Shown: piece after piece, positions 3,245 to 62,404 of the stretch
Numbering within the stretch: the first letter of the stretch is position 1
How the letters are laid out: each line of letters starts with the position of its first letter
Assembly: GCA_018667335.1 (NCBI GenBank)
Contig: JABIVD010000015.1
Span: forward strand, 93,211-157,210
Origin: Rhodospirillaceae bacterium
GTDB lineage: Bacteria > Pseudomonadota > Alphaproteobacteria > UBA6615
Direction: 5' to 3'
DNA: 64,000 nt
The notes under the pieces: model-generated
The model's input: only the letters and a program-made list of their open reading frames with translations
Told to the model about the DNA's origin: nothing
Databases searched by the model: none
Made by a program: the position numbers and the translations under genes

Positions 3245-3920
3245 CGTGCCACATCCGGACGACACGCAGCTGCAGGATACGCGGCGCGCGATACTCGCGG
3301 CCGTTCTACCGCATGTGCCCTTTGACGGATGGTCCGAGAAATCCCTGCGGCAGGCCGCGGCGGATACCGATCTCGACCCGGCAGTCGTGAAGCTCGCATT
3401 TTCCGGCGGGCCGGCCGACGTGATCGCCTTCTGGAGCGAAGCGGCCGACGGGGCTATGACCGCGGCCTTTGCCGATCAGAACGGCGACGAGATGCGGTTT
3501 CGCGAGCGGATCACGTTTCTGGTGCGGGCCCGGATCGGTGCTGTTGCGGGCCATCGCGAGGCTGTACGTCGCGCGCTCACCTATTTGGCGCAACCGCAGC
3601 ATGGCGGCACGGGTTTGCGCTGTCTTTATCGGAGCGTGGACGAGATGTGGTGCGCGGCCGGTGACCGGGCCACGGACTTTAATTTCTACACCAAGCGGCT
3701 GACACTGGCCGGGGTCTATTCCTCGACATTGTTGTTCTGGCTGGACGATACATCCGACGACAGCGCGGAGACCTGGGCGTTCCTCGATCGGCGCATCGCC
3801 GGTGTGATGCGTGTCCCCGCGCGCCGGGAAAAACTCCGCCGGGCCGGACGATATCTGCCGAACCCGCGACGTTTCGCGCGGCTCGTGTCGGAACGGTTGC
3901 GCGAGGGTGGCGTGGGGTGA
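3234..3920 (+). CDS. COQ9 family protein
   Basis: HVPFDGWS, AGDRATDFNFYTKRLTLAGVY, WLDDTS..TWAFLDRRI. Start overlaps the def stop. Confidence 0.9.
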   Translation: MTTDVPHPDDTQLQDTRRAILAAVLPHVPFDGWSEKSLRQAAADTDLDPAVVKLAFSGGPADVIAFWSEAADGAMTAAFADQNGDEMRFRERITFLVRARIGAVAGHREAVRRALTYLAQPQHGGTGLRCLYRSVDEMWCAAGDRATDFNFYTKRLTLAGVYSSTLLFWLDDTSDDSAETWAFLDRRIAGVMRVPARREKLRRAGRYLPNPRRFARLVSERLREGGVG

Positions 3921-6850
3921 TTTGTTGTCAGTAGGTCACGGGTTTGATTGTTGTGGCTAGCATCATCTTTTCAATGTTCTAGTGGCCATCGAGTTTTTCG
4001 ACCTGACAATTTGGAAGCACTCAGGTGAGTTTATCTCTCGCCTCAGGGGGCCCTTTAAAATCTGGAATTATGAGAGCATTTTTACCACGATGTCCGCTTT
4101 CGACCACAAATTGGCCATCACAGATATCTCAGCTGACTTCCGATGATGACCCAGAACGGACTCTGAGCAGAAGAAAAAGGCTCTTCAGCAAATTTAGTAA
4201 CGAGAATATCGATTAGGCTGGCGGCTGCATAGGTGCGCCGCATTCCGTCTCGGAAAGCGACTCTATCTTCAAAGCTCAGCAGTCTCTTAATGCCTCTTTA
4301 TCACCAGATGTCAGCGACAGTCGGGAAGCCTGACGCGATATTTCGTTCTTTTTCAACGTGCAAATCAGACTTACACGGTCCAGTGCGGGACCGTCACGAC
4401 GCAATCGCGCGTTCAATTCCCCGAAATCTGCAAACAGCGTCATTGATGCGAATCGATCCTGCTGGTAGCGGAGAAGAGCGATGTCTGCAACCAGTGCGTC
4501 GAAGAAAGGTTTACTCGAGAGGTCGCTCTGGAGCTGCTGATTTACCTTCCCGTCAGCTAAATTTGGCAGCTTATTTTGCGCTCTTAAGAACGCGGATTTA
4601 AGATATTTTCGAGCGCCGACTTCGTATTTTTCCTTGATCTCCTCTGCTGTCATCGGGTGAGTAGTGTCGTCGCGAATCGGATTCGCCCCAAATTTGAGTA
4701 CTTTCGGCTCTGGCTGTGTATCGGGCCAGAGGGTTTCTATGGGCGACGCAACGAAAGCGTTTTGCACTAGTTTTTGTACTAGTTCTTGGTCTGGTTCCTG
4801 AGAAAATCGGTCCTTCAAATAAGCTTTGAGTCGCTCCTCGAAAGCTTTGTCGAGAGTCTTTGGCGCATCTTCCTTGCGCGCTTTGTATGCTTCGATGATT
4901 GCCCAGTAGATTGGGGCCAAGAGCTGATCGGTTCTCGCAACACTTACATCCTGAAGGTCCCTATCAACGAGTATCCGCTCGCAAGCTGCAACAGTTAATG
5001 GCTGCAACCAAACATCATCAAACTTGAAGTTATTATAAAGTTCGCGGTTGCCATCAGGAGAACCGGGATCACTCTTTTTCTTAACGTCGTTTGACTGGTA
5101 AAATTGCTGTGCTAGCCCGCTGAGCACAAAGCCTTCGGCAACCTCTTTAGCGCCGTCGCGGTCAGCATCTACGCTTCCTGGTTCATTGCCGCGGGCAATT
5201 TCCCTTTCATGCGTTTCCGTCGCTTTCAAAGCATTTTTAATCGAAGATGCAAGTGCGTCCCGGATACCGTCTGAGAACATTACTTGCGCGAGCGCAATCA
5301 AAAGCCACGCCTTGTCGTCGATCTGATTGAGTCGATCCTCGATTACAAAAATACCTTTCTCCAGTCGCCTAGAGGCGAGACGCGCCACTCGGTATCGCAC
5401 GATGGTAGCGATCAGATCTTCTAGGAGCAGCACGTCGTACTCATGCAAAATATCTTCCAGCGGCAAACCATTTCTCAGGCCATGGAGAATGTCGGTCGCC
5501 TTTTCGACGGCCACTTGCAGAGGTGCCCAGACCGACGACTCCAGCGTTGTAATGAAATCACCGAGATCGTTGAGTTGTGCTTGAAGCTCTATGAATGTAC
5601 TGAGCGTCTTGTTCGTTTTATCGGGCAGATTCCTAGCTCGATTATTAAGGATACCCCTTGCCACGCCCGCCAGTTCGTCAAGGGCGGCTCCCAGTTTTCC
5701 GTGATCCGTGTGAGACTTCTCAGTCAAACGCTCGATGCGATTGACGAAGTCAGTGAATTCCGGTTGGAACTCAGCAAGCGAAACTCTCAGAGCAGCGATG
5801 TCCGATCGAATATCGGCAGCGGCAGTGACGATGGAGGGACCATAGCGTTTATACGTGACAACACCTGTATCAACCTGGACGAAAGCGCGCTGCAGTTTCT
5901 TGGCGATGTCGCGCACGGAATTGCGGATGGTTCTTGCTTCCTCGGAAAGCTTCTTAGCGTCATCGCGAATCAATACAAATGAGTCTTTCGGCAGCCCATC
6001 AAAGATTGCATCGATTTTTGCCAACGCTTCGGTGATATCCTCCTTCTCTCTCTCGCTTAGTCCTTCCAACACAGGGGCGTCGAGTTCCGTTTCGGCCAAC
6101 TTGACCAAAAATACGTATGCCGCCCGCAGCCGTTCCTCAAAGTCCGCCGCGAAAGCGGAGACAGACAGTGATTGATCATCGAACGTCCCGTCATCCGGAA
6201 ACCCGATCCGATTAGCAATTAAGCTCGACACGGTCTTTTTGTGCAAAACCTGTTGTGCCTCGAGAGTAAGTTGATCCGCTATGCACACCTCGAATGCACT
6301 TTGGTCGGCCTCCATGTTTTTCTTCATGCCGCTAATTACATGGCCGCAGCCTCCCAGCAGAGGCACGATCAACAGGGCCGTTACAAATTGTCTCAACATC
6401 CCGATATTCCCCCATGGCGTCGAGTTTATTTTGCCTTATCTTAAGCAGTATAACCACTGGCTTGTTCAATCATAGGTATTGGGGCCTTTGGTAGAGCAGC
6501 TACGTAGCTTTGCCGCTTCGGCATATGGCTAAAACTCGCCGTGCCGTGAGCTATTGGGGCATGCCTGCTATCTGTTTGAAACCGGTCATGCCCACCCCGG
6601 AAATGGCACATTCCATTCCAAACGCAACGTACTGTGCTTTTATTGGCCAATTAGCCTAGTTGTGTGAATTCTAATATGGGATAGAATTCTTCATCTAACT
6701 TCATGCCCGGTCGGGGCTTCCGATGCTTTATCAAGTTCACATGACCTTGAACCTGCCGGCTGAAGCTTTCCCGGTTTGAAGTTCATGCCTGTTTGCGGAA
6801 GGTGTGGTTCGAGTGTCCACATGTGAGGTGGGATCACTTAGTCCGGCATA
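3921..6850. mobile_element. Low-GC accessory island (no mobility gene visible)
   Basis: Visibly more AT-rich than the flanks, holds one orphan gene, and is bounded by the COQ9 stop and a displaced purK 3' fragment. Confidence 0.6.
4276..6399 (-). CDS. Hypothetical alpha-helical lipoprotein, 707 aa
   Basis: Long ORF in low-GC DNA with signal peptide and lipobox MLRQFVTALLIVPLLGG-C, a GGGGAA SD-like element, and amphipathic or coiled-coil character. Confidence 0.75.
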   Translation of the reverse strand: MLRQFVTALLIVPLLGGCGHVISGMKKNMEADQSAFEVCIADQLTLEAQQVLHKKTVSSLIANRIGFPDDGTFDDQSLSVSAFAADFEERLRAAYVFLVKLAETELDAPVLEGLSEREKEDITEALAKIDAIFDGLPKDSFVLIRDDAKKLSEEARTIRNSVRDIAKKLQRAFVQVDTGVVTYKRYGPSIVTAAADIRSDIAALRVSLAEFQPEFTDFVNRIERLTEKSHTDHGKLGAALDELAGVARGILNNRARNLPDKTNKTLSTFIELQAQLNDLGDFITTLESSVWAPLQVAVEKATDILHGLRNGLPLEDILHEYDVLLLEDLIATIVRYRVARLASRRLEKGIFVIEDRLNQIDDKAWLLIALAQVMFSDGIRDALASSIKNALKATETHEREIARGNEPGSVDADRDGAKEVAEGFVLSGLAQQFYQSNDVKKKSDPGSPDGNRELYNNFKFDDVWLQPLTVAACERILVDRDLQDVSVARTDQLLAPIYWAIIEAYKARKEDAPKTLDKAFEERLKAYLKDRFSQEPDQELVQKLVQNAFVASPIETLWPDTQPEPKVLKFGANPIRDDTTHPMTAEEIKEKYEVGARKYLKSAFLRAQNKLPNLADGKVNQQLQSDLSSKPFFDALVADIALLRYQQDRFASMTLFADFGELNARLRRDGPALDRVSLICTLKKNEISRQASRLSLTSGDKEALRDC

Positions 6851-11531: not shown

Positions 11532-13169
11532 TTACGCGGTCGCACTCGCGAGTTCGTTTGCCTGATCGCGCAGCTTGAACTTCTGAATTTTGCCGGTCGA
11601 CGTCTTGGGCAACGGTCCGAACACCACATATCGCGGGCATTTGAAGCCGGCGAGATTGTCCCGGCAATGCTGGAGAATGTCTTCTTCCGTTGCCTCGACG
11701 CCGGGCTTTAGTTCGATGAACGCGCAGGGCGTTTCACCCCATTTCTCGTCGGGCCGGGCGACAACCCCCACGGCCGCGACCGCCGCGTGCCTGTAGAGGG
11801 CATCCTCGACTTCGATGGATGAGATGTTCTCTCCGCCGGAGATGATGATGTCTTTCGAGCGGTCCTTGAGTTCGACGTAGCCGTCGGGATGCCACACCCC
11901 GAGGTCGCCCGTGTGGAACCAGCCGCCGGCAAAGGCCTCGTCGGTAGCCTTCGGGTTCTTCAGATAGCCCTTCATCGTCACGTTGCCACGGGTGAACACC
12001 TCGCCCATGGTCTCGCCATCCTGCGGGACCGGGACCATGGTCTCCGCATCGGCGACCATCATGTCTTCCAGAACCTCATAGGGCACGCCCTGGCGTGACT
12101 GCAATCGGGCCCGCTCGTCGAGCGGCAGTGCATCCCATTCGTCCTGCCAGGCGCAGATGATGGCCGGGCCGTAAATCTCGGTCAGGCCATAGACGTGGGT
12201 GACGTTGATGCCTTCCTCGGACATCGCCGCGAGCACGGACGCCGGAGGTGGAGCCGCAGCGGTCATGAATTCGACCTGCTGTTCGAATGGGCGGCGATCT
12301 GCCTCCGTCGCATTGACGATCATCTGCATGACGATCGGTGCGCCGCACAGATGGGTGATGCCCTTGGTCGCGATCGCCTCATAGATGTTCGCGGCGTCCA
12401 CGTTGCGCAGGCACACATTGGTGCCGGCCACGGCGACGACGCCCCAGGTGAAGCACCAGCCGTTGCAGTGGAACATCGGCAAGGTCCACAGATAGACAGG
12501 GCCGCCGGTCGCTCCCCAGGTGAAGACGTTGCCGATCGCGTTGAGATAGGCGCCACGGTGATGGAACACCACGCCCTTGGGATTGCCCGTGGTGCCGGAG
12601 GTGTAGTTGAGCGCGACGGCGTCCCACTCATCGGCGGGCAGGGACCATTCGAATTCGGCATCGCCCGTCGCGATGAATGCCTCATAGTCCATCTCGCCCA
12701 GCTTCTCGCCACCGGGACCTTCCGGATCATCAATGTCGATCACGATCGGGTCGACCTTGGCCAGAGTGAGCGCTTCCTTGATGACCGGTGCGAACTCGGT
12801 GTCGGTCAACAGCACCTTCGCTTCACCATGATCGAGGATGAAGGCGATGGCCTTGGCGTCGAGGCGATAGTTCAGTGCATTGATCACGCCGCCGGTCATG
12901 GGCACGCCGAAATGGGATTCGAGCATTGGAGGTGTATTGGGCGACATGATGGCCACGCAATCGCCGACGCCTATGCCGCGCTGGCTGAGTGCGGAGGCGA
13001 GCCGTCGGCAGCGCGCATAGAATTCCGCATAGGTGAAGCTCGTGTCGCCATGCACCACTGCCGCCCGGCTCGGGTACACCTTTGCCGTGCGACGTATGAA
13101 GCTGAGCGGCGACAGCGATGTAAAGTTCGCTGCGTTCTTATCCAGGTCGGTTTCGAAATGATTGGCCAT
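11532..13169 (-). CDS. Acyl-CoA synthetase (AMP-binding)
   Basis: NYTSGTTGNPKG, YGLTE, FHTGDL, DRSKDIIISGGEN, PKTSTGKIQK. Confidence 0.93.
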   Translation of the reverse strand: MANHFETDLDKNAANFTSLSPLSFIRRTAKVYPSRAAVVHGDTSFTYAEFYARCRRLASALSQRGIGVGDCVAIMSPNTPPMLESHFGVPMTGGVINALNYRLDAKAIAFILDHGEAKVLLTDTEFAPVIKEALTLAKVDPIVIDIDDPEGPGGEKLGEMDYEAFIATGDAEFEWSLPADEWDAVALNYTSGTTGNPKGVVFHHRGAYLNAIGNVFTWGATGGPVYLWTLPMFHCNGWCFTWGVVAVAGTNVCLRNVDAANIYEAIATKGITHLCGAPIVMQMIVNATEADRRPFEQQVEFMTAAAPPPASVLAAMSEEGINVTHVYGLTEIYGPAIICAWQDEWDALPLDERARLQSRQGVPYEVLEDMMVADAETMVPVPQDGETMGEVFTRGNVTMKGYLKNPKATDEAFAGGWFHTGDLGVWHPDGYVELKDRSKDIIISGGENISSIEVEDALYRHAAVAAVGVVARPDEKWGETPCAFIELKPGVEATEEDILQHCRDNLAGFKCPRYVVFGPLPKTSTGKIQKFKLRDQANELASATA

Positions 13170-15445: not shown

Positions 15446-15558
15446 AGGGTGATGGCTCCTCCCATAGACCATCATTGGATCTTACCTAGATCCTCTTTTT
15501 TGCCTCCCTGTTTGACTTCTAGCCGCTTCGGAACCCCCTTCCGAGGCGGTTTTCTTTT
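15446..15558 (+). ncRNA. Candidate trans-acting sRNA with two CCUCCC anti-SD motifs
   Basis: Hairpin TGATGG-CTCCTCCCATAGA-CCATCA, hairpin GGATCT-TACCT-AGATCC, then TTGCCTCCCTG and a terminator GCCGCTTCGGAA-CCCCC-TTCCGAGGCGGT-TTTCTTTT. Confidence 0.7.
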
Positions 15559-15642
15559 GCCGATAAGGCCTATGCCGGTTCAAGCCCGTGTCTGGTTGGG
15601 ATAAGTTTCGCGACGAATTCCCATCGCTGCCGGACAAGCCCC

Positions 15643-31267: not shown

Positions 31268-31948
31268 CTAGGCACAGGCCGTGTTGAATGCGCGCACGGC
31301 GCCACCCGGGCCTTCGGGGTGCGACCAGACCCCGGCGGACACCGCGAGGAAATCCGCGCCGGCTTCAATCAAGGGTGCGCAATTGTCGACGGTGATACCG
31401 CCGATGGCGACGCACGGCACCTCCGTGACATCGGACCACCATGCGAGGATGTCCCGACCAACTCGGCTTTTGGGGGATTTGGTGCCTGTGTCAAAGAATG
31501 CACCGAACGCAACATAGTCCGCACCGGCCTCTGCCGCCTCGAGCGCGAGGTGCCGGGAATCATGGCAAGTCACGCCGACAATTGCGTCGTCCCCCAGCAA
31601 TCGCCGGGCGTCTGCATAGGAGGCATCCTCCTGGCCGACATGGACGCCGTCGCAGCCAAGTTCAGCGGCGAGGTCGGGCCGGTCGTTCAGGATAAACGCG
31701 ACGTTGTGTTTCTGGGTGATCGGCAGCAATTCACCGACTGCACGGTGGATTTCCGCATCCGGCACGGGTGCTTCGTCGGGCCCCTTGAGGCGCAACTGCA
31801 GGCAAGCGACATCGCCGGCCGAGAGCGCGGCGTCCAGCGTTGTGGCAAACGCCGCCAGCTTCTCCGCGGAGAGATCGGGAGGGCTGATCAGGTAGAGGCG
31901 GCAACCGAGGTCGCCGCCTCCTGTCCCGTCTGTATCGGGCGCGCTCAG
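31268..31948 (-). CDS. thiE: Thiamine-phosphate synthase (probable CTG start)
   Basis: [36 protein letters not shown]. The open frame extends to a CTG overlapping the fbaB stop. Confidence 0.9.
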
Positions 31949-32865
31949 AACTTGCCCTGATAAATCTTGATGACGTTGGCAAGCAGTTCAAGCGCATCCT
32001 CGCGGGAGCGCTGGAAACTGTTGCGACCGATGATAGACCCGTTGGCACCGCCATCGCGGAGCTGTCGGATTTCCTCATACACCGCATCTGTTCCCTTGGC
32101 CGCGCCGCCGGAGAAGACCACCAGGCGACGTCCGCCGAAGGAGGATTCCATAACGTGCGCGATGCGGGCGCTGAGGGTCGAGATGTCGATCTTCTCGGCG
32201 TCGTAGACCTTTTGCGCGTCCTCGCTCTCGATGAAGTCGGTCGGCGGTTTCACCTTGATGATGTTCGCGCCGAGCTGTGCAGCCATATGGGCGGCATATG
32301 CGCAGACGTCGATGGCGGTCTCGCCACCCTTGGAGATATCGCCGCCACGTGGATAGGACCAGATCACGACGGCCAGCCCGAGGGATTTGGCTTCGAGGGT
32401 GATCTCGCGAATCTCTTCGATCATTTCGAATTGGTATTCGGAGCCCGGGTAAATCGTGAATCCGACCGCCGAGCAGCCGATGCGCAGCGCATCTTCGACC
32501 GAGCCCGTGATCGCCTGGTCTTTTGTCACGGCGTGCGAGTTGGCCGAGTTGATCTTCAGGATCAGAGGCACCGAGCCGGCGAAGCTGTCCGCCGCCGCTT
32601 CGAGCTGGCCGAGAGGTGCGGCATAGGCGTTGAGGCCGGCATCGATCGCAAGCTGCGGAAAATAGTGTGGATCATAGGCCGGCGGATTGGGCGCGAAGCT
32701 GCGGGCGGGTCCATGTTCCCAGCCCTGATCCACCGGCAGGATCACCATCTTGCCGGTGCCGGCAAGTTTGCCTGACATCAGGATGCGGGCAAGGTTCGTT
32801 TTCGTACCGGGGTTGTCGCTCTCATACCAGGAGAGAATTTTCCGGACGCGCTGCGTGACTTTCAT
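31945..32865 (-). CDS. fbaB: Class I fructose-bisphosphate aldolase (DhnA type)
   Basis: [37 protein letters not shown]. Confidence 0.92.
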
Positions 32866-32943
32866 GTCGCTGTTTCCCGTTGTCGAAGCCGGTCCATTAC
32901 GCCGCGCAGCCAAGTCACGGGCAGGACTTTGAACACTAGTGAA

Positions 32944-33408
32944 TTAGCCGAGGACGCCCGGTTTTGCAACGCCGTCCGGGGTGTTCGAGAGGTAGAGATA
33001 GCAATCACGCTGTGGATTGTTTGAGTCAGCAAGATCGAGTGCGCCGGCGCGATCAATGCGTAAGACACTGGCATCGCACTGGACCGCGATTTGTGCCACG
33101 CGCGACCAGATCGGTTCCCCAGCATCCAGCGCGATTGCCTGGACTCCCTCGCGCAAGGCGGCGAGCGCCATGCCGGGTTCATCGCCACAATCGAGGATCC
33201 ACTCCGCAGCTTGATCCGGGACATTGGCACCGGCCTGTGTAACCAGTTCGCGCCACCATCCGGCACCGGCCGAGCGCACCGCGCCCATCGCGCTGAGGAT
33301 TGTAATTGGCCGGTTATGCGCCTGTGCGGCGGTCAGGGCGGCGACAGCATGGCTGAATTCATGGACGACGATCGTGGCCGGTGCGCTCTGAGGATTGACT
33401 TCGGCCAT
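32944..33408 (-). CDS. Hypothetical protein
   Basis: Protein-like alpha/beta pattern (IVVH..HAVAAL, LSA, AGAGWW, ILDCGDEPGMALAALREG), co-directional with fbaB. Confidence 0.65.
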   Translation of the reverse strand: MAEVNPQSAPATIVVHEFSHAVAALTAAQAHNRPITILSAMGAVRSAGAGWWRELVTQAGANVPDQAAEWILDCGDEPGMALAALREGVQAIALDAGEPIWSRVAQIAVQCDASVLRIDRAGALDLADSNNPQRDCYLYLSNTPDGVAKPGVLG

Positions 33409-33520
33409 CCGCCGACGATCTCCGGTGTGTGGGGTGCGCACCTAGAGAAATTGCGCGCCTTAGCTGTCGTTCTTATTGGTATGACGCATTGTCGTTGACG
33501 CCAAATGCAATTACAAGAAT

Positions 33521-33537
33521 TGTGCCATCCTGGAACA
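33521..33537. promoter_or_regulatory. Putative LysR autoregulatory box
   Basis: TGTGCC-N5-GGAACA (T-N11-A core), 14 nt before the LysR ATG. Confidence 0.65.
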
Positions 33538-33551
33538 TATAGGGGAATTGA

Positions 33552-34463
33552 ATGGATACGCTGACGTCGATGGAGCTTTTCGTGAAAGCCGTCGAATCCG
33601 GCAGCTTCTCGGCAACGGCTCGGTCGATGAACCTGACCCCGTCCGCCGTGAGCAAGCAGATTTCCCGGCTCGAAGACCGGCTCGGGGCCCGGTTGTTCAA
33701 CCGGACCACCCGCCAGTTGGCGCCGACAGAAGAGGGCCGCGCCTATTATGAGCGCTGCCAGCAGATACTGGCCGATATCCAGGAAGCAGAGGCGGCAGTC
33801 ACGGAATTGAACACCGAGCCGCGCGGGGCCCTGCGGGTGAATATGCCGGTGGTGTTCGGCCGTCGGCATATCGTCCCGATCCTCGGCGAGTTTCTCGAAC
33901 GTCACCCTTTTGTATCAATGGAACTGTCGATGTCCGATCAGTTCGTCGACCCGATCGCGGAAGGTGCCGACATGCTTATCCGTGTCGGCGAACTCAAGGA
34001 TTCAAGCCTGATTGCGCGGAAGCTGGCCGAAGCGCGGCGCGTGGTCGCCGCGACACCCGCCTATTGGGAGAAGAACGGAACGCCCATGAAGCCCGAGGAA
34101 TTGCGGGCCCACAATTGTCTCACCTATTCCTATCTGTCGAGCGGGAACACTTGGCGCATGACGGATTCCAAGGGCAAGGAACATGTGATCCAGGCGACAG
34201 GCAATCTCGCATCGAACAATGGCGAGGCGCTGCTTGAGGCTGCCGTCGAGGGGCTCGGTGTGGTCAATCTGCCGACCTGGATGGTCGGGCCGGATCTGGA
34301 ATCCGGGCGCCTGACCGAGGTGCTGGACGAATATGCCCAGCCCGAGCCGTCGGTGCATGTCATCTATCCGCCGGGCCGGCATCTGTCGGCCAAGGTGCGC
34401 GCGTTCGTCGATTTCCTGGCCGGGCATTTCAAGGAACGCCCGCTTGGCACCGCCACCAAATAG
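33552..34463 (+). CDS. LysR-type regulator (CrgA-like)
   Basis: GSFSATA..PSAVSKQISRLEDRLGARLFNRTTR..TEEG, KVRAFVDFL. Confidence 0.95.
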   Translation: MDTLTSMELFVKAVESGSFSATARSMNLTPSAVSKQISRLEDRLGARLFNRTTRQLAPTEEGRAYYERCQQILADIQEAEAAVTELNTEPRGALRVNMPVVFGRRHIVPILGEFLERHPFVSMELSMSDQFVDPIAEGADMLIRVGELKDSSLIARKLAEARRVVAATPAYWEKNGTPMKPEELRAHNCLTYSYLSSGNTWRMTDSKGKEHVIQATGNLASNNGEALLEAAVEGLGVVNLPTWMVGPDLESGRLTEVLDEYAQPEPSVHVIYPPGRHLSAKVRAFVDFLAGHFKERPLGTATK

Positions 34464-34483
34464 CGGGCCGGATATCCCCGCAT

Positions 34484-34575
34484 AAAAAAGAACGGCCCGG
34501 GCAGGGCCCGGGCCGAAGGTAAGATCGTTTCAGGGAGGAACCGATCAGAATGCCGTGCCGACAGCGCGCCGGCGT
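34484..34575 (-). ncRNA. Candidate sRNA with UUCCUCCCU anti-SD loop
   Basis: Hairpin GCCGGC-GCGCT-GTCGGC, hairpin GATCG-GTTCCTCCCTGAAA-CGATC, terminator CGGCCCGGGC-CCT-GCCCGGGCCG-TTCTTTTTT, and a -10-like CATAGT at 34585-34580. Confidence 0.72.
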
Positions 34576-34620
34576 ACCGACTATGTAGGGTGTGCTGACC
34601 CGAGGTAAAATGGGCACAAA

Positions 34621-34660
34621 AAGAAACCCACATGTTCCAAAAAGGAACACATGGGTTCTT
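34621..34660 (-). terminator. Possible gap terminator overlapping the LysR box
   Basis: Imperfect hairpin followed by TTTCTTTTT on the minus strand. Confidence 0.5.
34633..34649. promoter_or_regulatory. Perfect palindromic LysR-type box upstream of the sRNA
   Basis: TGTTCC-AAAAA-GGAACA, matching the box at 33521. Confidence 0.7.
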
Positions 34661-34713
34661 GAAATCCGTCCGCCGCCAATTGCGACGGGATAATAATCCG
34701 AAATATCAGATGG

Positions 34714-35739
34714 TTAGACGAGGCGTCCCATCTGGACCGCGGTGTCGCTCATGCGGTTCGAGAAGCCCCATTCATTGTCGTACCAGCTCAGAATGCGGAC
34801 CATACGGCCGTCCGTGACTTGCGTCTGGGTCAGGTCGAACACCGAACTGGCCGGATCATGGTTGAAGTCCGACGAGACCAGCGGCGCGCTGTTGACCGTG
34901 AGGATGCCCTTCATGGGGCCTTTCTCGGCTGCCTTGATCATCGCTGCGTTCACCGCCTCAACGGTCGTGGCCTTCTTGGCCTCGATGACCAGATCGACCA
35001 TCGAAACGTTTGCGGTCGGCACGCGCACCGCGGTGCCGTCGATCTTGCCCGCCAGTTCCGGTAGCACGAGGCCGACCGCACGGGCAGCACCCGTTGACGT
35101 CGGGATGATCGACATCGCGGCCGCGCGGGCCCGGTGCAGATCCTTGTGCATCGTGTCCTGTACCGGCTGGTCGCCGGTATAGGCGTGCACCGTGGTCATG
35201 AATCCACGTTTGATGCCGACGGTCTTGTCGAGGATGGCCGCGACCGGCGACAGGCAGTTGGTCGTGCAGGATGCGTTGGAGACGACCGTGTGCGACTTGC
35301 GCAACTTCTTGTCATTGACGCCCTGCACAATTGTCAGGTCGGCGTTGGTCGCGGGCGCCGAGATCAGCACCTTCTTCGCGCCGGCCTGGATATGGGCGCC
35401 GGCGGATTCTTTGGATGTGAAGATGCCGGTGCATTCCAGGACCACGTCGATGTCCAGATCGCCCCAGGGCAGATCGGCGGGGTTGCGTTCGGCGAACACT
35501 TTGACCGAGCGGCCAATGGTCGACTTGGCGCCCAGATTGATCGACGACTTGCCCGCTTTCACGATGCCGGGGAAACGGCCGTGGATGGAATCATACTGCA
35601 GCAAATGTGCGTTCACATCGACCGAACCCAGATCGTTAATCGCCACGAAGGTGATGTCCTTGCGACCGGCCTCATACGCCGCCCGCATCACCAGGCGCCC
35701 AATTCGCCCGAACCCGTTGATTGCTACCCGAATCGCCAT
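34714..35739 (-). CDS. gap: Type I glyceraldehyde-3-phosphate dehydrogenase
   Basis: [34 protein letters not shown]. Confidence 0.97.
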
Positions 35740-35799
35740 CACCTTCTCCTCGTGTTCAAAATTAGATCGTCTTCTGATCGGCGCGCGTCCACCCGTGGG

Positions 35800-37806
35800 T
35801 CAGGACATCGCCCCCTTAACGCGGGCAGCAACGGCTTCCGCGGTTATTCCAAAATGCGCATAAACCTCAGGCGCCGGCGCGGACGCGCCGAAGCTGCGCA
35901 TGCCCACCACATCGGCCTCGGCCACGCCATAGCGTGACCATCCGAAGGTGACGCCGGCCTCGACCGCGACGCGGACGCAGTCGTCAGCGCCGAGTGTCTC
36001 GGCCTGATAGGCCGCGTCCTGTGCGTCGAACAATTCCCAGCAGGGCATGGACACCACAGCCGTCGGGATCCCGTCGGCCTGCAGCGCGTCGCGCGCCGCC
36101 ATTGCGATCTCGACTTCCGAGCCGGTCGCCAGGATCGTTGCCGCACGTTCCCCGTCAGACGGTGCAAGAACATAGGCACCACGTGCGCTCAGATTGTCGT
36201 CTGTGTGTTCGTTTCGCACGGTCGGAAGCCCTTGGCGGGTCAGCGCCAGAACCGACGGCGTGCCGGTGCTCTGCAGAGCCAGCGCCCAGCACTCGGCGGT
36301 CTCGACCGCATCGGCCGGTCGGTAGACGTTGACGTTCGGCATGGCCCGCAGGCTTGCAACATGTTCAATCGGCTGATGGGTGGGGCCGTCCTCGCCCAGG
36401 CCGATCGAGTCATGGGTCATGACATAGATCACCCGCAATCCCATTAGCGCCGACAGGCGGATCGAAGGGCGGCAATAATCCGTGAAGGTCAGAAAGGTGC
36501 CCGAATAGGGAATGAAGCCGCCGTGCAAGGCCATGCCGTTCATCGCGGCGGCCATGCCGTGTTCGCGCACACCGTAATACATATAACGCCCGTCGAAGGC
36601 GCCGGCCTGAACCGGATCCATACAGGCGGTCTTGGTGTTGTTCGAGCCGGTCAGGTCGGCCGATCCGCCGATCATGGTCTCGACCATCGGAGTGATGACC
36701 TCGAGCGCTTCCTGGCTCGATTTGCGGGTCGCCCATTTCGGCGCGTCGGCTGAAAGCTGTTTCTTGTAAGCGTTGACGGTCGCGTCGAATTCATCGGGCA
36801 ACGTCCCCGCGACGGCATTGTCAAAGGCCTGGCGTCGGTCCGCCGGCAGCGCATCATGGCGCTCGGTCCAGGCGGCGCGATCGGCTTGGCCGCGCGCACC
36901 GGCTGCACGCCATTCGTCGAGGATATCTGCTGGCACCTCGAACGGTGCGTGGTTCCAGCCAAGCTGCGCGCGGGTGGCGGCAATCTCGTCATCGCCCAGC
37001 GGCGCGCCATGGGTTGCCGACGTGCCCTGCTTGTTGGGTGAGCCGTAGCCGATGATCGTGCGGCATGCGATCAGGGACGGTTTGTCGCTGGCCTTCGCCG
37101 CCGTGAGGGCGGCATCGATTGCCGCGGGGTCATGCCCGTCAATGCGGGCGACGTCCCAGCCGCTGGCGGCGAACCGACCGAGCTGGTCGTCCGACACCGA
37201 AAGGTCGGTGCCGCCGTCGATCGAAATATCATTGTCGTCGAACAACACGATCAGGCGCGAGAGATTGAGGTGGCCAGCCAGCGAGATGGCCTCGTGGCTG
37301 ATGCCTTCCATCAGGCAACCGTCACCGGCAAACACATAAGTGTGGTGGTCGACGATGTCGTCGCCGTAGCGGGCGTTCATCAGGCGTTCTGCGAGCGCCA
37401 TGCCGACGGCGTTGCCGATGCCCTGGCCGAGCGGGCCCGTGGTCGTCTCCACACCCGCAGCATGTCCGTATTCGGGGTGCCCCGGGGTGCGGCTGCCGAG
37501 CTGCCGGAAATTCTTGATCTCGTCGATTGTCATATCCGGCGAGCCCGTGAGGTACAGCAGCGAATAGAGCAGCATGGATGCGTGCCCGTTCGACAGGACG
37601 AAACGGTCGCGATCGGGCCAGTCGGGGTTTGCGGCATCGAATTTGAGATGGCGGGTGTAAAGCACGGTTGCCATGTCGGCCATGCCCATCGGGGCACCGG
37701 GGTGACCGGAGTTGGCGGCTTGCACCGCGTCCATCGATAGGGCCCGGATGGCATTTGCCAGTTGCGCGTGGGCGCTGTTGGCGGCTTCGGATGCGACATT
37801 GTTCAT
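35800..37806 (-). CDS. tkt: Transketolase
   Basis: [41 protein letters not shown]. Confidence 0.97.
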
Positions 37807-62346: not shown

Positions 62347-62351
62347 CTGCG

Positions 62352-62404
62352 GTGGGCCACACCTCCCCAACGAGGTGCGGCGTTCTGTAAGGAGCGCGTT
62401 TATG
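62352..62404 (+). promoter_or_regulatory. serC leader RNA motif
   Basis: Hairpin CACCTC-CCCAAC-GAGGTG, then GCGTTCT-GTAA-GGAGCGC sequestering the SD directly before serC. Confidence 0.7.

Follow-up and report, generated by a model that had tools for sequence, protein, structure and literature searches.

The window analyzed here is a 64-kb stretch of DNA from an uncultured marine alphaproteobacterium, in which a gene for a LysR-type transcriptional regulator (LTTR) lies within a tkt-gap-fba central-carbon cluster (33552..34463, plus strand, 303 aa). On its upstream side, the open reading frame orf155 (32944..33408, minus strand; 154 aa from an ATG at 33408) is oriented divergently, and the next gene is fba, encoding a class I fructose-bisphosphate aldolase (31945-32913). 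On its downstream side, gap (34714..35742, minus strand), encoding a type I glyceraldehyde-3-phosphate dehydrogenase, is convergent with LysR and has the transketolase gene tkt (35800-37806) upstream of it. The gene order fba-orf155-LysR was retained in 19/19 loci with flanks. The orf155 product matched no Pfam family at threshold and showed weak similarity to the N terminus of class II aldolases.

The LysR protein has the architecture of an LTTR, with an N-terminal HTH_1 domain (PF00126, 81.2 bits) and a C-terminal LysR substrate-binding domain (PF03466, 161.1 bits; both Pfam) within 303 aa, close to the expected length of about 300 aa. Its closest solved structures were 3hhg (E 9e-55), 3mz1 and 3szp/3t1b; the PDB titles give just "LysR family", and we take 3hhg to be CrgA and 3szp/3t1b to be AphB. 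The cutoff of the YafC equivalog model (NCBIfam NF040888) was not reached by the protein (262.3 versus 470 bits). Membership of the regulator in the CrgA/AphB/YafC-like group of LTTRs is supported in silico, and the label "CrgA-like" used in the original prediction fits, since CrgA, AphB and YafC-type LTTRs are the best sequence relatives. We know of no sRNA target for any of these three. The orthologues found in 21 loci were 87-98% identical to the LysR protein, and the best relative beyond these reached 44%.

Two operator-like dyads flank the LysR gene. The upstream one, TGTGCC-N5-GGAACA (33521..33537), contains T-N11-A and lies 15-31 nt before the LysR ATG (33552) and 113 nt from the ATG of orf155; an interrupted dyad of this kind is thus present in the promoter region of the regulator itself, as is usual for LTTRs. 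The downstream one is a perfect dyad, TGTTCC-N5-GGAACA (34633..34649, centre 34641), beyond the 3' end of the gene. Both had been described in the original prediction and were recovered at these positions. Moreover, in the genome scan that had been proposed for the dyad, the pattern TGTKCC-N5-GGAACA matched at just two sites in 3,548,614 bases (the 3.55-Mb genome), both beside LysR, and the reversed control pattern had 0 matches. Within the 64-kb window, the observed motif count was equalled in 1/100 shuffles. With up to one mismatch to the first box, about 21 sites were found genome-wide on either strand, and the chance of one such near-match falling in the 250-nt gap adjoining the LysR gene was roughly 0.002.

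Conservation of the two dyads was concentrated in their half-sites. The upstream box was kept, with a variable N5, in 23/23 orthologous loci (21 loci, the own locus and L005); in the 21, it had at most one mismatch and its distance was unchanged. Among nine genomes, the dyad arms were invariant at 14/15 and 10/15 positions and the N5 spacer at 0/5, compared with 32/146 (22%) of the four-fold sites of LysR and with 1/55 and 0/20 positions of the remaining spacer DNA. Conserved half-sites, a free spacer, uniqueness in the genome and linkage to the gene support in silico the notion that both boxes behave as operators. Judged by box position alone, orf155 is probably a classical divergent target of the LTTR.

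The downstream box forms part of a 15-pair hairpin (34658-34624) followed by CUUUUUG, the predicted intrinsic terminator of gap (34614..34658, minus strand). A palindrome with a T-run is a textbook terminator, and part of its conservation may stem from that role. An L008/L009 change in this hairpin preserves a G-U pair on the minus strand only. A second intrinsic terminator was found on the same strand at 34515-34493, so that the two bracket the region in which we place a candidate sRNA. One could explain this arrangement without any regulated sRNA: the palindrome would be the gap terminator, the GC hairpin a terminator shared by the convergent genes, and everything between them gap 3' UTR or spacer. 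Indeed, both hairpins score as minus-strand terminators, and one RNA-library contig extends from gap across the first hairpin as far as 34593. We nevertheless consider this explanation unlikely, because the only other place in the genome where these half-sites recur is the LysR upstream box, and because an 18-nt block and a -10 element are conserved between the hairpins whereas the surrounding spacer is not.

The distribution of the downstream box also speaks against such a reading. It had at most one mismatch in 9/9 sRNA-type loci and was present only where a minus-strand transcription unit follows. The four loci L028, L030, L033 and L037 have neither the unit nor the box, and the box is degenerate in one further locus. 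In the four loci without the unit, gap and LysR overlap or end at generic hairpins devoid of the motif. In a sister clade, whose loci carry a small ORF downstream of the box, the homologous dyad stands apart from the gap terminator. Conservation of the palindrome solely as a gap terminator, which the original prediction had regarded as fatal to its proposal, is thus contradicted on two grounds, by the sister clade and by the loci without the unit. In the genus, the box has been extended into the gap terminator hairpin and probably serves both roles. The additional half-site that had been noted nearby does exist (GGCACA at 34613-34618, that is, TGTGCC on the minus strand) but was conserved in just 2/9 relatives.

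We then considered the promoter that would drive the minus-strand unit. A -10 hexamer, CTACAT (34583..34588, minus strand), reads CTAnAT in 9/9 genomes, with 5/6 positions invariant, and is offset by 62-67 nt from the box start, equal to the offset of the -10 in the small-ORF promoters. Both clades share one promoter frame, consisting of the box, an A/T run, a second box and the -10 CTAnAT, with the box centre near -65. None of the near-matches to the box elsewhere in the genome has this frame: C7:1095 is intergenic, after a GCV_T-like gene, C10:31013 overlaps a Shine-Dalgarno (SD) sequence, and the remaining ones lie within ORFs. The original prediction had placed the -10 at CATAGT; this sequence is present (34585-34580), yet the hexamer that is conserved, CTACAT, lies 3 nt upstream of it (34588-34583). 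The distance of about 67 bp given there between palindrome centre and transcription start came close to the approximately 65 nt that we found (34641 to ~34576). The weak -35 did not hold up, as no -35-like hexamer was present 17 nt upstream of the conserved -10. A generic sigma-70 scan reported no promoter at the candidate sRNA.

At activated LTTR promoters, the box lies near -65 and a -10 is present while the -35 is missing. Since the conserved -10 lacks a -35 and the box is centred near -65, LysR, presumed to bind there, would be expected to activate rather than repress this promoter. As in LTTRs that activate an adjacent sRNA, an LTTR-type box lies upstream of the candidate sRNA promoter and agrees with the one found at the promoter of the LTTR itself. 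A possible second (activation) site at 34595..34612 (minus strand) is suggested by positional homology only: the region is TTTATTCC-like in L005 and in the small-ORF clade and weak in the genus. Conversely, the boxes might be real LysR operators at which the downstream promoter is repressed, or by which the locus is only insulated or looped, in which case the RNA would be produced while the regulator is inactive. In favour of this, a copy of the motif overlaps the LysR promoter region, the usual place of repression by LTTRs, the second site that activation calls for is poorly kept in the genus (2/18 positions invariant), and the 3hhg relative reportedly forms octamers that could bridge two distant sites. 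We find repression or looping rather unlikely, given that the box position and the missing -35 fit activation and that the promoter frame is exactly retained in the small-ORF clade.

The candidate sRNA itself (34484..34576, minus strand) would be ~92 nt long, with a 5' end inferred to within about 3 nt. Its elements correspond to those of the original prediction, namely a variable 5' hairpin (34573-34557), a 5-bp hairpin (34547-34521) with the loop GUUCCUCCCUGAAA, which displays UUCCUCCCU, and a strong intrinsic terminator (34483..34515) made of 10 G-C pairs (34515-34493), a 3-nt loop and TTCTTTTTT. The putative anti-SD seed UUCCUCCCU (34532..34540; AGGGAGGAA on the plus strand) is part of the 18-nt block, which was nearly invariant across nine genomes. 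The UUCCUCCCUGAAAC loop was almost invariant among the nine sRNA-type loci. In these nine close sequences, 93.1% of the cells were paired across the whole candidate structure and 95.3% in the terminator, where one pair showed a compensatory CG-to-UA change; in L007, half of the terminator stem is deleted. Covariation was weak among these very close sequences: 1/15 pairs showed a compensatory change, and the covariation score was reached by 19/500 shuffles. The candidate structure is thus backed mostly by sequence conservation among close relatives. As for strand, five G-U cells favour the minus strand versus one cell that pairs on the plus strand only, and the GC hairpin, having no plus-strand T-run, would be a poor terminator for LysR.

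The strand preference bears on a different interpretation of the seed, in which AGGGAGGAA would be the plus-strand SD sequence for a mini-ORF of 12 codons (34550-34588) on LysR read-through transcripts. Here an ATG follows a perfect SD sequence at a distance of 9 nt, 6/9 genomes have an open frame up to a TAG, and the GC hairpin lacks a plus-strand T-run. Yet L005 has a 27-nt deletion and no start codon, a 26-nt insertion in L008 and L009 alters length and stop, and the peptide is not conserved, whereas the 18 nt around the supposed SD sequence are. Together with the wobble changes favouring minus-strand pairing, this makes translation of a mini-ORF highly improbable.

A covariance model of the RNA (R1) scored 62-97 bits at nine syntenic loci only, corresponding to 9/12 genus genomes, and did not exceed 32.6 bits elsewhere in 46 family genomes, including the own genome. 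Matches of 20-33 bits were examined as possible paralogues and turned out to be MmgR orthologues, plain terminators or other CCUCCC RNAs. No second copy of the sRNA region was found in the own genome, where it is single copy. The Rfam comparison that had been proposed placed the RNA outside known families at the gathering score, the best subthreshold match being anti-hemB (24.1 versus 49.5 bits); the sole Rfam match in the window was a serC leader at 62350-62401. These data support, computationally, a conserved noncoding RNA with an anti-SD loop as the downstream unit. An RNA-like element with the same loop was also seen at L069 (G015), in an unrelated context and without LysR.

Contigs from 4/16 metatranscriptomic RNA runs were compared with the locus; such assembled contigs are uninformative on absence, starts, ends and strand. 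Those identical to the locus cover gap and its 3' end to 34593 as well as parts of LysR (33445-33796 and 34262-34452), and they leave 34476-34592 uncovered, which cannot show absence. One of them crosses the gap-terminator hairpin, and gap read-through could therefore also feed the sRNA region.

The comparison between the genus and its sister clade revealed a difference in what the promoter frame precedes. In the genus, the downstream unit is the candidate ~92-nt RNA, and it was lost outright in three genus-level loci. In seven sister-clade loci, an equivalent frame precedes a small ORF of 45-49 aa, with a box to -10 offset of 62-67 nt and the leader start CAAYGCGRC at index 140 in 7/7. The small ORF matched no Pfam family and no named Atlas cluster, its unit matched no Rfam family at threshold, and no copy was found in the own genome (best tblastn E 0.29). 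When the 3' half of the sRNA was compared with the 3' coding part of the small ORF, 2/6 comparisons were above shuffles (1/300 and 4/300) and 4/6 were at shuffle level. The RNA could consequently be seen as the decaying remainder of such a small ORF, of which promoter and terminator survive and the transcript has no function, a reading with which the equivalent promoter, the two comparisons above shuffles and the three losses would agree. It appears improbable to us: the seed loop was invariant at 14/16 positions in nine genomes versus 22% at neutral-like sites, a dispensable unit is deleted here and not left drifting, and the other four comparisons did not rise above shuffles.

Tentatively, and with less than an even chance of being right, one LTTR-controlled promoter might have swapped its cargo between the 45-49-aa protein and the anti-SD RNA while the operator grew into the gap terminator. 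Within such a swap, the anti-SD RNA may have been built from the leader and the 3' coding end of the old gene. If this were true, the regulator would recognize as DNA the very 35-nt palindrome that the polymerase reads as RNA, and gap read-through, regulator occupancy and sRNA output could be coupled. The locus would also offer a natural case in which sister clades have placed a small-protein gene and an sRNA, respectively, under one regulated promoter, and this is relevant to the origin of sRNAs. Neither the small-ORF counterpart nor orf155 as a likely second target had been recognized in the original prediction.

Sequence and comparison show a motif that is unique in the genome and linked to the gene, a shared promoter frame, conserved RNA elements and the replacement by a small ORF. 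On this basis, we regard the locus as a well-supported in silico candidate for an LTTR paired with an anti-SD sRNA. As a whole, the explanation to which we incline, with odds slightly better than even, is that LysR binds two flanking dyads and activates the sRNA, one box doubling as the gap terminator. The CrgA/YafC-like LTTR, responding to a presumed ligand, would bind a TTGTKCC-N5-GGAAYA dyad at two places bracketing its own gene. At the upstream copy, which overlaps the LysR promoter or leader, it would regulate its own synthesis and probably control the divergent orf155-fba. At the downstream copy, it would activate the minus-strand promoter, with its good -10 (CTACAT) and no -35, to yield a stand-alone ~92-nt RNA ending at the strong terminator 20 nt past the LysR stop codon. 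As this RNA presents UUCCUCCCUGAAAC in an open hairpin loop, it would most likely pair with SD regions and repress translation of a set of mRNAs. The downstream operator, lengthened to a 15-pair hairpin with a U-tract, would also terminate the convergent gap and exemplify an operator embedded within a terminator hairpin. With two operators and no further match in the genome, the predicted regulon would be clean and testable.

Complementarity to the seed of at least 9 nt was found at 258 places. The top SD-located matches were in two luciferase-like monooxygenases, a polysaccharide deacetylase-like protein and a 2OG-Fe(II) oxygenase. The best extended match, to a luciferase-like monooxygenase (12 nt), was discarded, since the flank complementarity did not covary with the sRNA flank in five orthologues. 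The acyl-CoA synthetase put forward in the original prediction, an AMP-binding enzyme (11532-13169), has only a generic strong SD sequence with an 8-nt match and was dropped as a target. The candidate seed is a generic anti-SD sequence, and we claim no specific target.

Pairs of an LTTR and an sRNA have been described in a few model bacteria. In the enterobacterial OxyR-OxyS and GcvA-GcvB pairs, the gene of an autoregulating LTTR adjoins the gene of the sRNA that it activates, and the two are divergent with one control region in common. Here, in contrast, the sRNA would be transcribed convergently towards the 3' end of the LTTR gene, under a separate second operator that doubles as the terminator of a neighbour. 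Our candidate would extend the known set by a pair unrelated to it, in which another LTTR subgroup is combined with a new RNA family and the host lineage is an abundant, uncultured one of marine alphaproteobacteria. A close parallel is the Rhizobiales system in which the alphaproteobacterial LTTR VtlR/LsrB goes together with the sRNAs AbcR1, AbcR2 and VrsA and with small proteins. VtlR directly activates abcR1 next to it, a further sRNA gene, vrsA, and a gene for a small protein (PMC7486931); its direct targets comprise an adjacent anti-SD sRNA, a further sRNA and hypothetical proteins of small size (PMC7486931 and PMC7143759). Similarly, the LTTR promoter at our locus precedes a candidate sRNA in the genus and a small ORF in the sister clade. 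The candidate sRNA has no AbcR-type Rfam match, however, and the host is a marine uncultured lineage. The VtlR box (GCAT-N3-TG-N3-T; PMC7486931) was absent from both promoters (33409-33551 and 34560-34700), and its eight matches in the window compare with 8.8 by chance. AbcR and MmgR use unpaired anti-SD motifs, according to PMC7143759, which proposes the motif as the targeting element of MmgR/suhB (RF00519, alpha-r8). Like our candidate, the latter is short, leaves UUCCUCCCU unpaired and has a GC-rich terminator after this motif; in the candidate sRNA, however, the loop of a hairpin holds the motif, the genomic context and the promoter are different, and the RF00519 gathering score was not reached (21.3 versus 41 bits). 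A true MmgR/suhB copy is present elsewhere in the genome (contig C62, 51.8 bits), and the seed core is common to this RNA and the candidate sRNA.

The regulator gene (LysR; 33552-34463, +) encodes 303 aa with HTH_1 and LysR_substrate domains; its closest solved structures were 3hhg, 3mz1 and 3szp/3t1b, and its top NCBIfam model was YafC, with a score under the cut-off. It converges with a type I GAPDH gene (gap; 34714-35742, -), which is preceded by a transketolase gene (35800-37806, -), and diverges from orf155 (33408-32944, -; 154 aa, without family), next to which lies a class I fructose-bisphosphate aldolase gene (fba). A scan of species-representative genomes yielded 21 orthologues of LysR (87-98% identical), all from uncultured marine alphaproteobacterial assemblies going by their titles, followed by a drop to 44% for the next relative, which marks the regulator as specific to this lineage. 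Gene order (fba-orf155-LysR-gap) was intact in 19 of 19 loci having flanks. Within the genus, the LysR-gap spacer (250 nt, single copy in its genome) was present in 8 of 11 other genomes, each time with LysR (94-98% aa identity) and gap in synteny. Seven of the 21 orthologue loci belong to the same genomes as loci L002-L009, and distinct loci with a readable spacer numbered 21. orf155, directly upstream of the class I aldolase gene, is conserved among loci at 47-78% identity and evolves faster than its neighbours; it weakly resembles class II fructose-bisphosphate aldolase over the latter's N-terminal part (E 0.002-0.006 in two libraries, and in Atlas clusters too).

The original prediction placed matching dyads on both sides of LysR, and all its coordinates proved correct on re-check. 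The genome (3,548,614 bases) contains just two matches to TGTKCC-N5-GGAACA, one before the LysR ATG (33521-33537) and one after the LysR stop (34633-34649), and the backwards control pattern gave 0 matches in the same genome. One-mismatch sites to the first box numbered 11 and 12 in the two orientations, and a second site within the adjacent 250 nt would therefore arise by chance with a probability of ~0.002. The upstream box was found within one mismatch, at a constant distance to the start codon, in all 21 loci as well as in the own locus and L005. Its five spacer bases vary freely; this pattern reads as the footprint of a protein-binding dyad. A one-mismatch palindrome, TGTTCC-N5-GGAACG, lies elsewhere in the genome (contig C7, 1095-1111), in AT-rich intergenic DNA that follows a GCV_T-like gene, possibly as a third operator or by chance.

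Two minus-strand intrinsic terminators were identified in the LysR-gap spacer. The first, a 15-pair hairpin followed by CTTTTTG (34658-34624, -), has the perfect dyad TGTTCC-N5-GGAACA (34633-34649) as its core, and the second is a 10-pair all-GC hairpin followed by TTCTTTTTT (34515-34493, -). Between them lie a -10 hexamer, CTACAT (34588-34583, -), a small hairpin, and a separate 5-bp hairpin with a 14-nt loop, GUUCCUCCCUGAAA. Folding of the 239-nt minus strand gave z = -5.3, equalled by 0 of 200 shuffles. Invariance was counted over the nine sRNA-type genomes, with LysR four-fold sites as a neutral-like baseline (32/146, 22%). Against this baseline, the dyad arms (14/15 and 10/15), the T-run (7/11), the -10 (5/6) and the seed loop (14/16) stood out, and selection therefore acts on the operator/terminator arms, the -10 and the loop. 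Invariant positions made up 0/5 of the dyad spacer, 4/29 of the variable 5' part of the sRNA, 2/18 of the putative second box, and 1/55 and 0/20 of the remaining spacer. At one locus (L003, the same as L027), three copies of a ~17-nt unit (CCGGACAGTCGACAAAG) are inserted in the stretch from the LysR stop to the sRNA terminator.

In the sRNA genus, the dyad would double as the gap terminator, and the palindrome could have been conserved for that role only. The spacers of the 21 distinct loci, which fall into four types, argue otherwise. Nine carry the predicted sRNA of this window; seven carry a minus-strand small ORF of 45-49 aa, one with in-frame stops; four have neither and lack the motif; and one (L034) has a degenerate palindrome and nothing else. 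In the small-ORF type, an ordinary hairpin immediately 3' of gap serves as the terminator of that gene, and the dyad stands apart from this hairpin, as TGTTCC-N5-GGAACA in L035 and TGTTCC-N5-GGATCA in L038; the remaining dyads chiefly retain the GGAATAAAT half. The dyad is followed by an A/T run, a second TTTATTCC-N5-GGA box, a -10 (CTATCT or CTATAT) and a conserved leader, which starts at an identical index in 7/7 units. Counted from the dyad's first base, the -10 lies 62-67 nt away in these loci and in the window alike; thus, the window palindrome is homologous to an operator that has no terminator role elsewhere. In the motif-free type, a generic GC hairpin ends three loci, and LysR and gap overlap in the fourth, L030. 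The downstream box was present only where a transcription unit comes after it and, on this comparison of loci, is not merely a terminator. A LysR+gap tree, rooted at midpoint only, splits the small-ORF clade, in which there were two losses, from the sRNA genus, to which the RNA-less L028, L030 and L034 also belong. The small-ORF product has 14 invariant columns; the in-frame stops lie in L041 (3909-4304, -), where promoter and terminator are still there. In L038, whose spacer measures 826 nt, an extra ORF of ~110 aa (3909-4400, +), lysine/glutamate-rich and coiled-coil-like, is inserted so that it separates LysR from the small-ORF unit.

The predicted sRNA matched zero Rfam families at threshold; the nearest models were anti-hemB (24.1 versus 49.5 bits) and suhB/MmgR (21.3 versus 41 bits). 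The true suhB/MmgR gene (RF00519; 51.8 bits, carrying GUUUCCUCCCU) lies on another contig (C62, 32496-32567, +), and the sRNA is therefore a second RNA sharing the UUCCUCCCU core. R1, a covariance model of the sRNA core, scored 62-97 bits at nine syntenic loci (9/12 genus genomes) and did not detect the sRNA in genus genomes G001, G002 and G005 (completeness 100, 87 and 82%). Across the 46 family genomes searched, off-locus scores reached at most 32.6 bits, on an own-genome contig (C27), and at most 31.6 bits beyond the genus. Covariation was weak: 1 of 15 pairs was compensatory, 93% of cells were paired, and 19 of 500 shuffles reached the score. Most single changes give G-U on the minus strand, which speaks for an RNA of that strand. 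No SD-preceded start codon was found on the minus strand of this region; a plus-strand 12-codon mini-ORF behind AGGGAGGAA is not conserved in 3/9 genomes. Metatranscriptome contigs from four runs, blind to ends and strand, span gap and its 3' end as far as 34593, along with parts of LysR. One RNA-library contig, identical to the window (34593-34780), spans the gap terminator hairpin and ends 5 nt before the -10, which could reflect read-through or DNA carry-over. Target prediction for the sRNA gave generic or non-conserved matches only.

We propose that LysR would bind both dyads, autoregulating at its own promoter and probably also controlling orf155-fba on the divergent side. There, we infer, a conserved ATTGTCG block and a hexamer resembling CAATAA have offsets similar to those of the downstream second box and -10. 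At the downstream promoter, activation by LysR is suggested by a dyad centred near -65 and by the lack of a -35. This promoter would yield a terminated RNA of ~92 nt, which would block ribosome-binding sites with its open CCUCCC loop. Such occlusion is ascribed to AbcR, NfeR1 and MmgR in PMC7143759.

According to PMC7486931, VtlR of Agrobacterium directly activates the adjoining abcR1 as well as vrsA (an sRNA) and atu1667 (a small protein), acting through a GCAT-N3-TG-N3-T box. That box was absent at this locus. OxyR-OxyS and GcvA-GcvB are divergent pairs sharing one control region. The LysR-sRNA case is proposed to work like these three; it differs from them in its LTTR subgroup, in its RNA family, in its convergent layout with a second operator and in the probable terminator role of that operator. 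Its unusual features would be the swap of cargo between small ORF and sRNA and the dual-use palindrome.

Other RNA-like elements were also observed. The top secondary R1 match (C27, 42737-42825, +; 32.6 bits) contains GUUCCUCCGUUCCCCC and a terminator, and a short element in the window (15488-15564, +) combines GCCUCCCUG with a terminator and a sub-threshold suhB/MmgR score of 22.4 bits. The sole window Rfam match at gathering score was a serC leader (RF00517; 62350-62401, +; 56.7 bits). In a genome of another genus (G015), locus L069 holds an element (1491-1560, +) whose loop, CUUCCUCCCUGAAAC, is identical; this element also has a terminator and sits behind a TAACCTT/AAGGTTA dyad with no LysR nearby.
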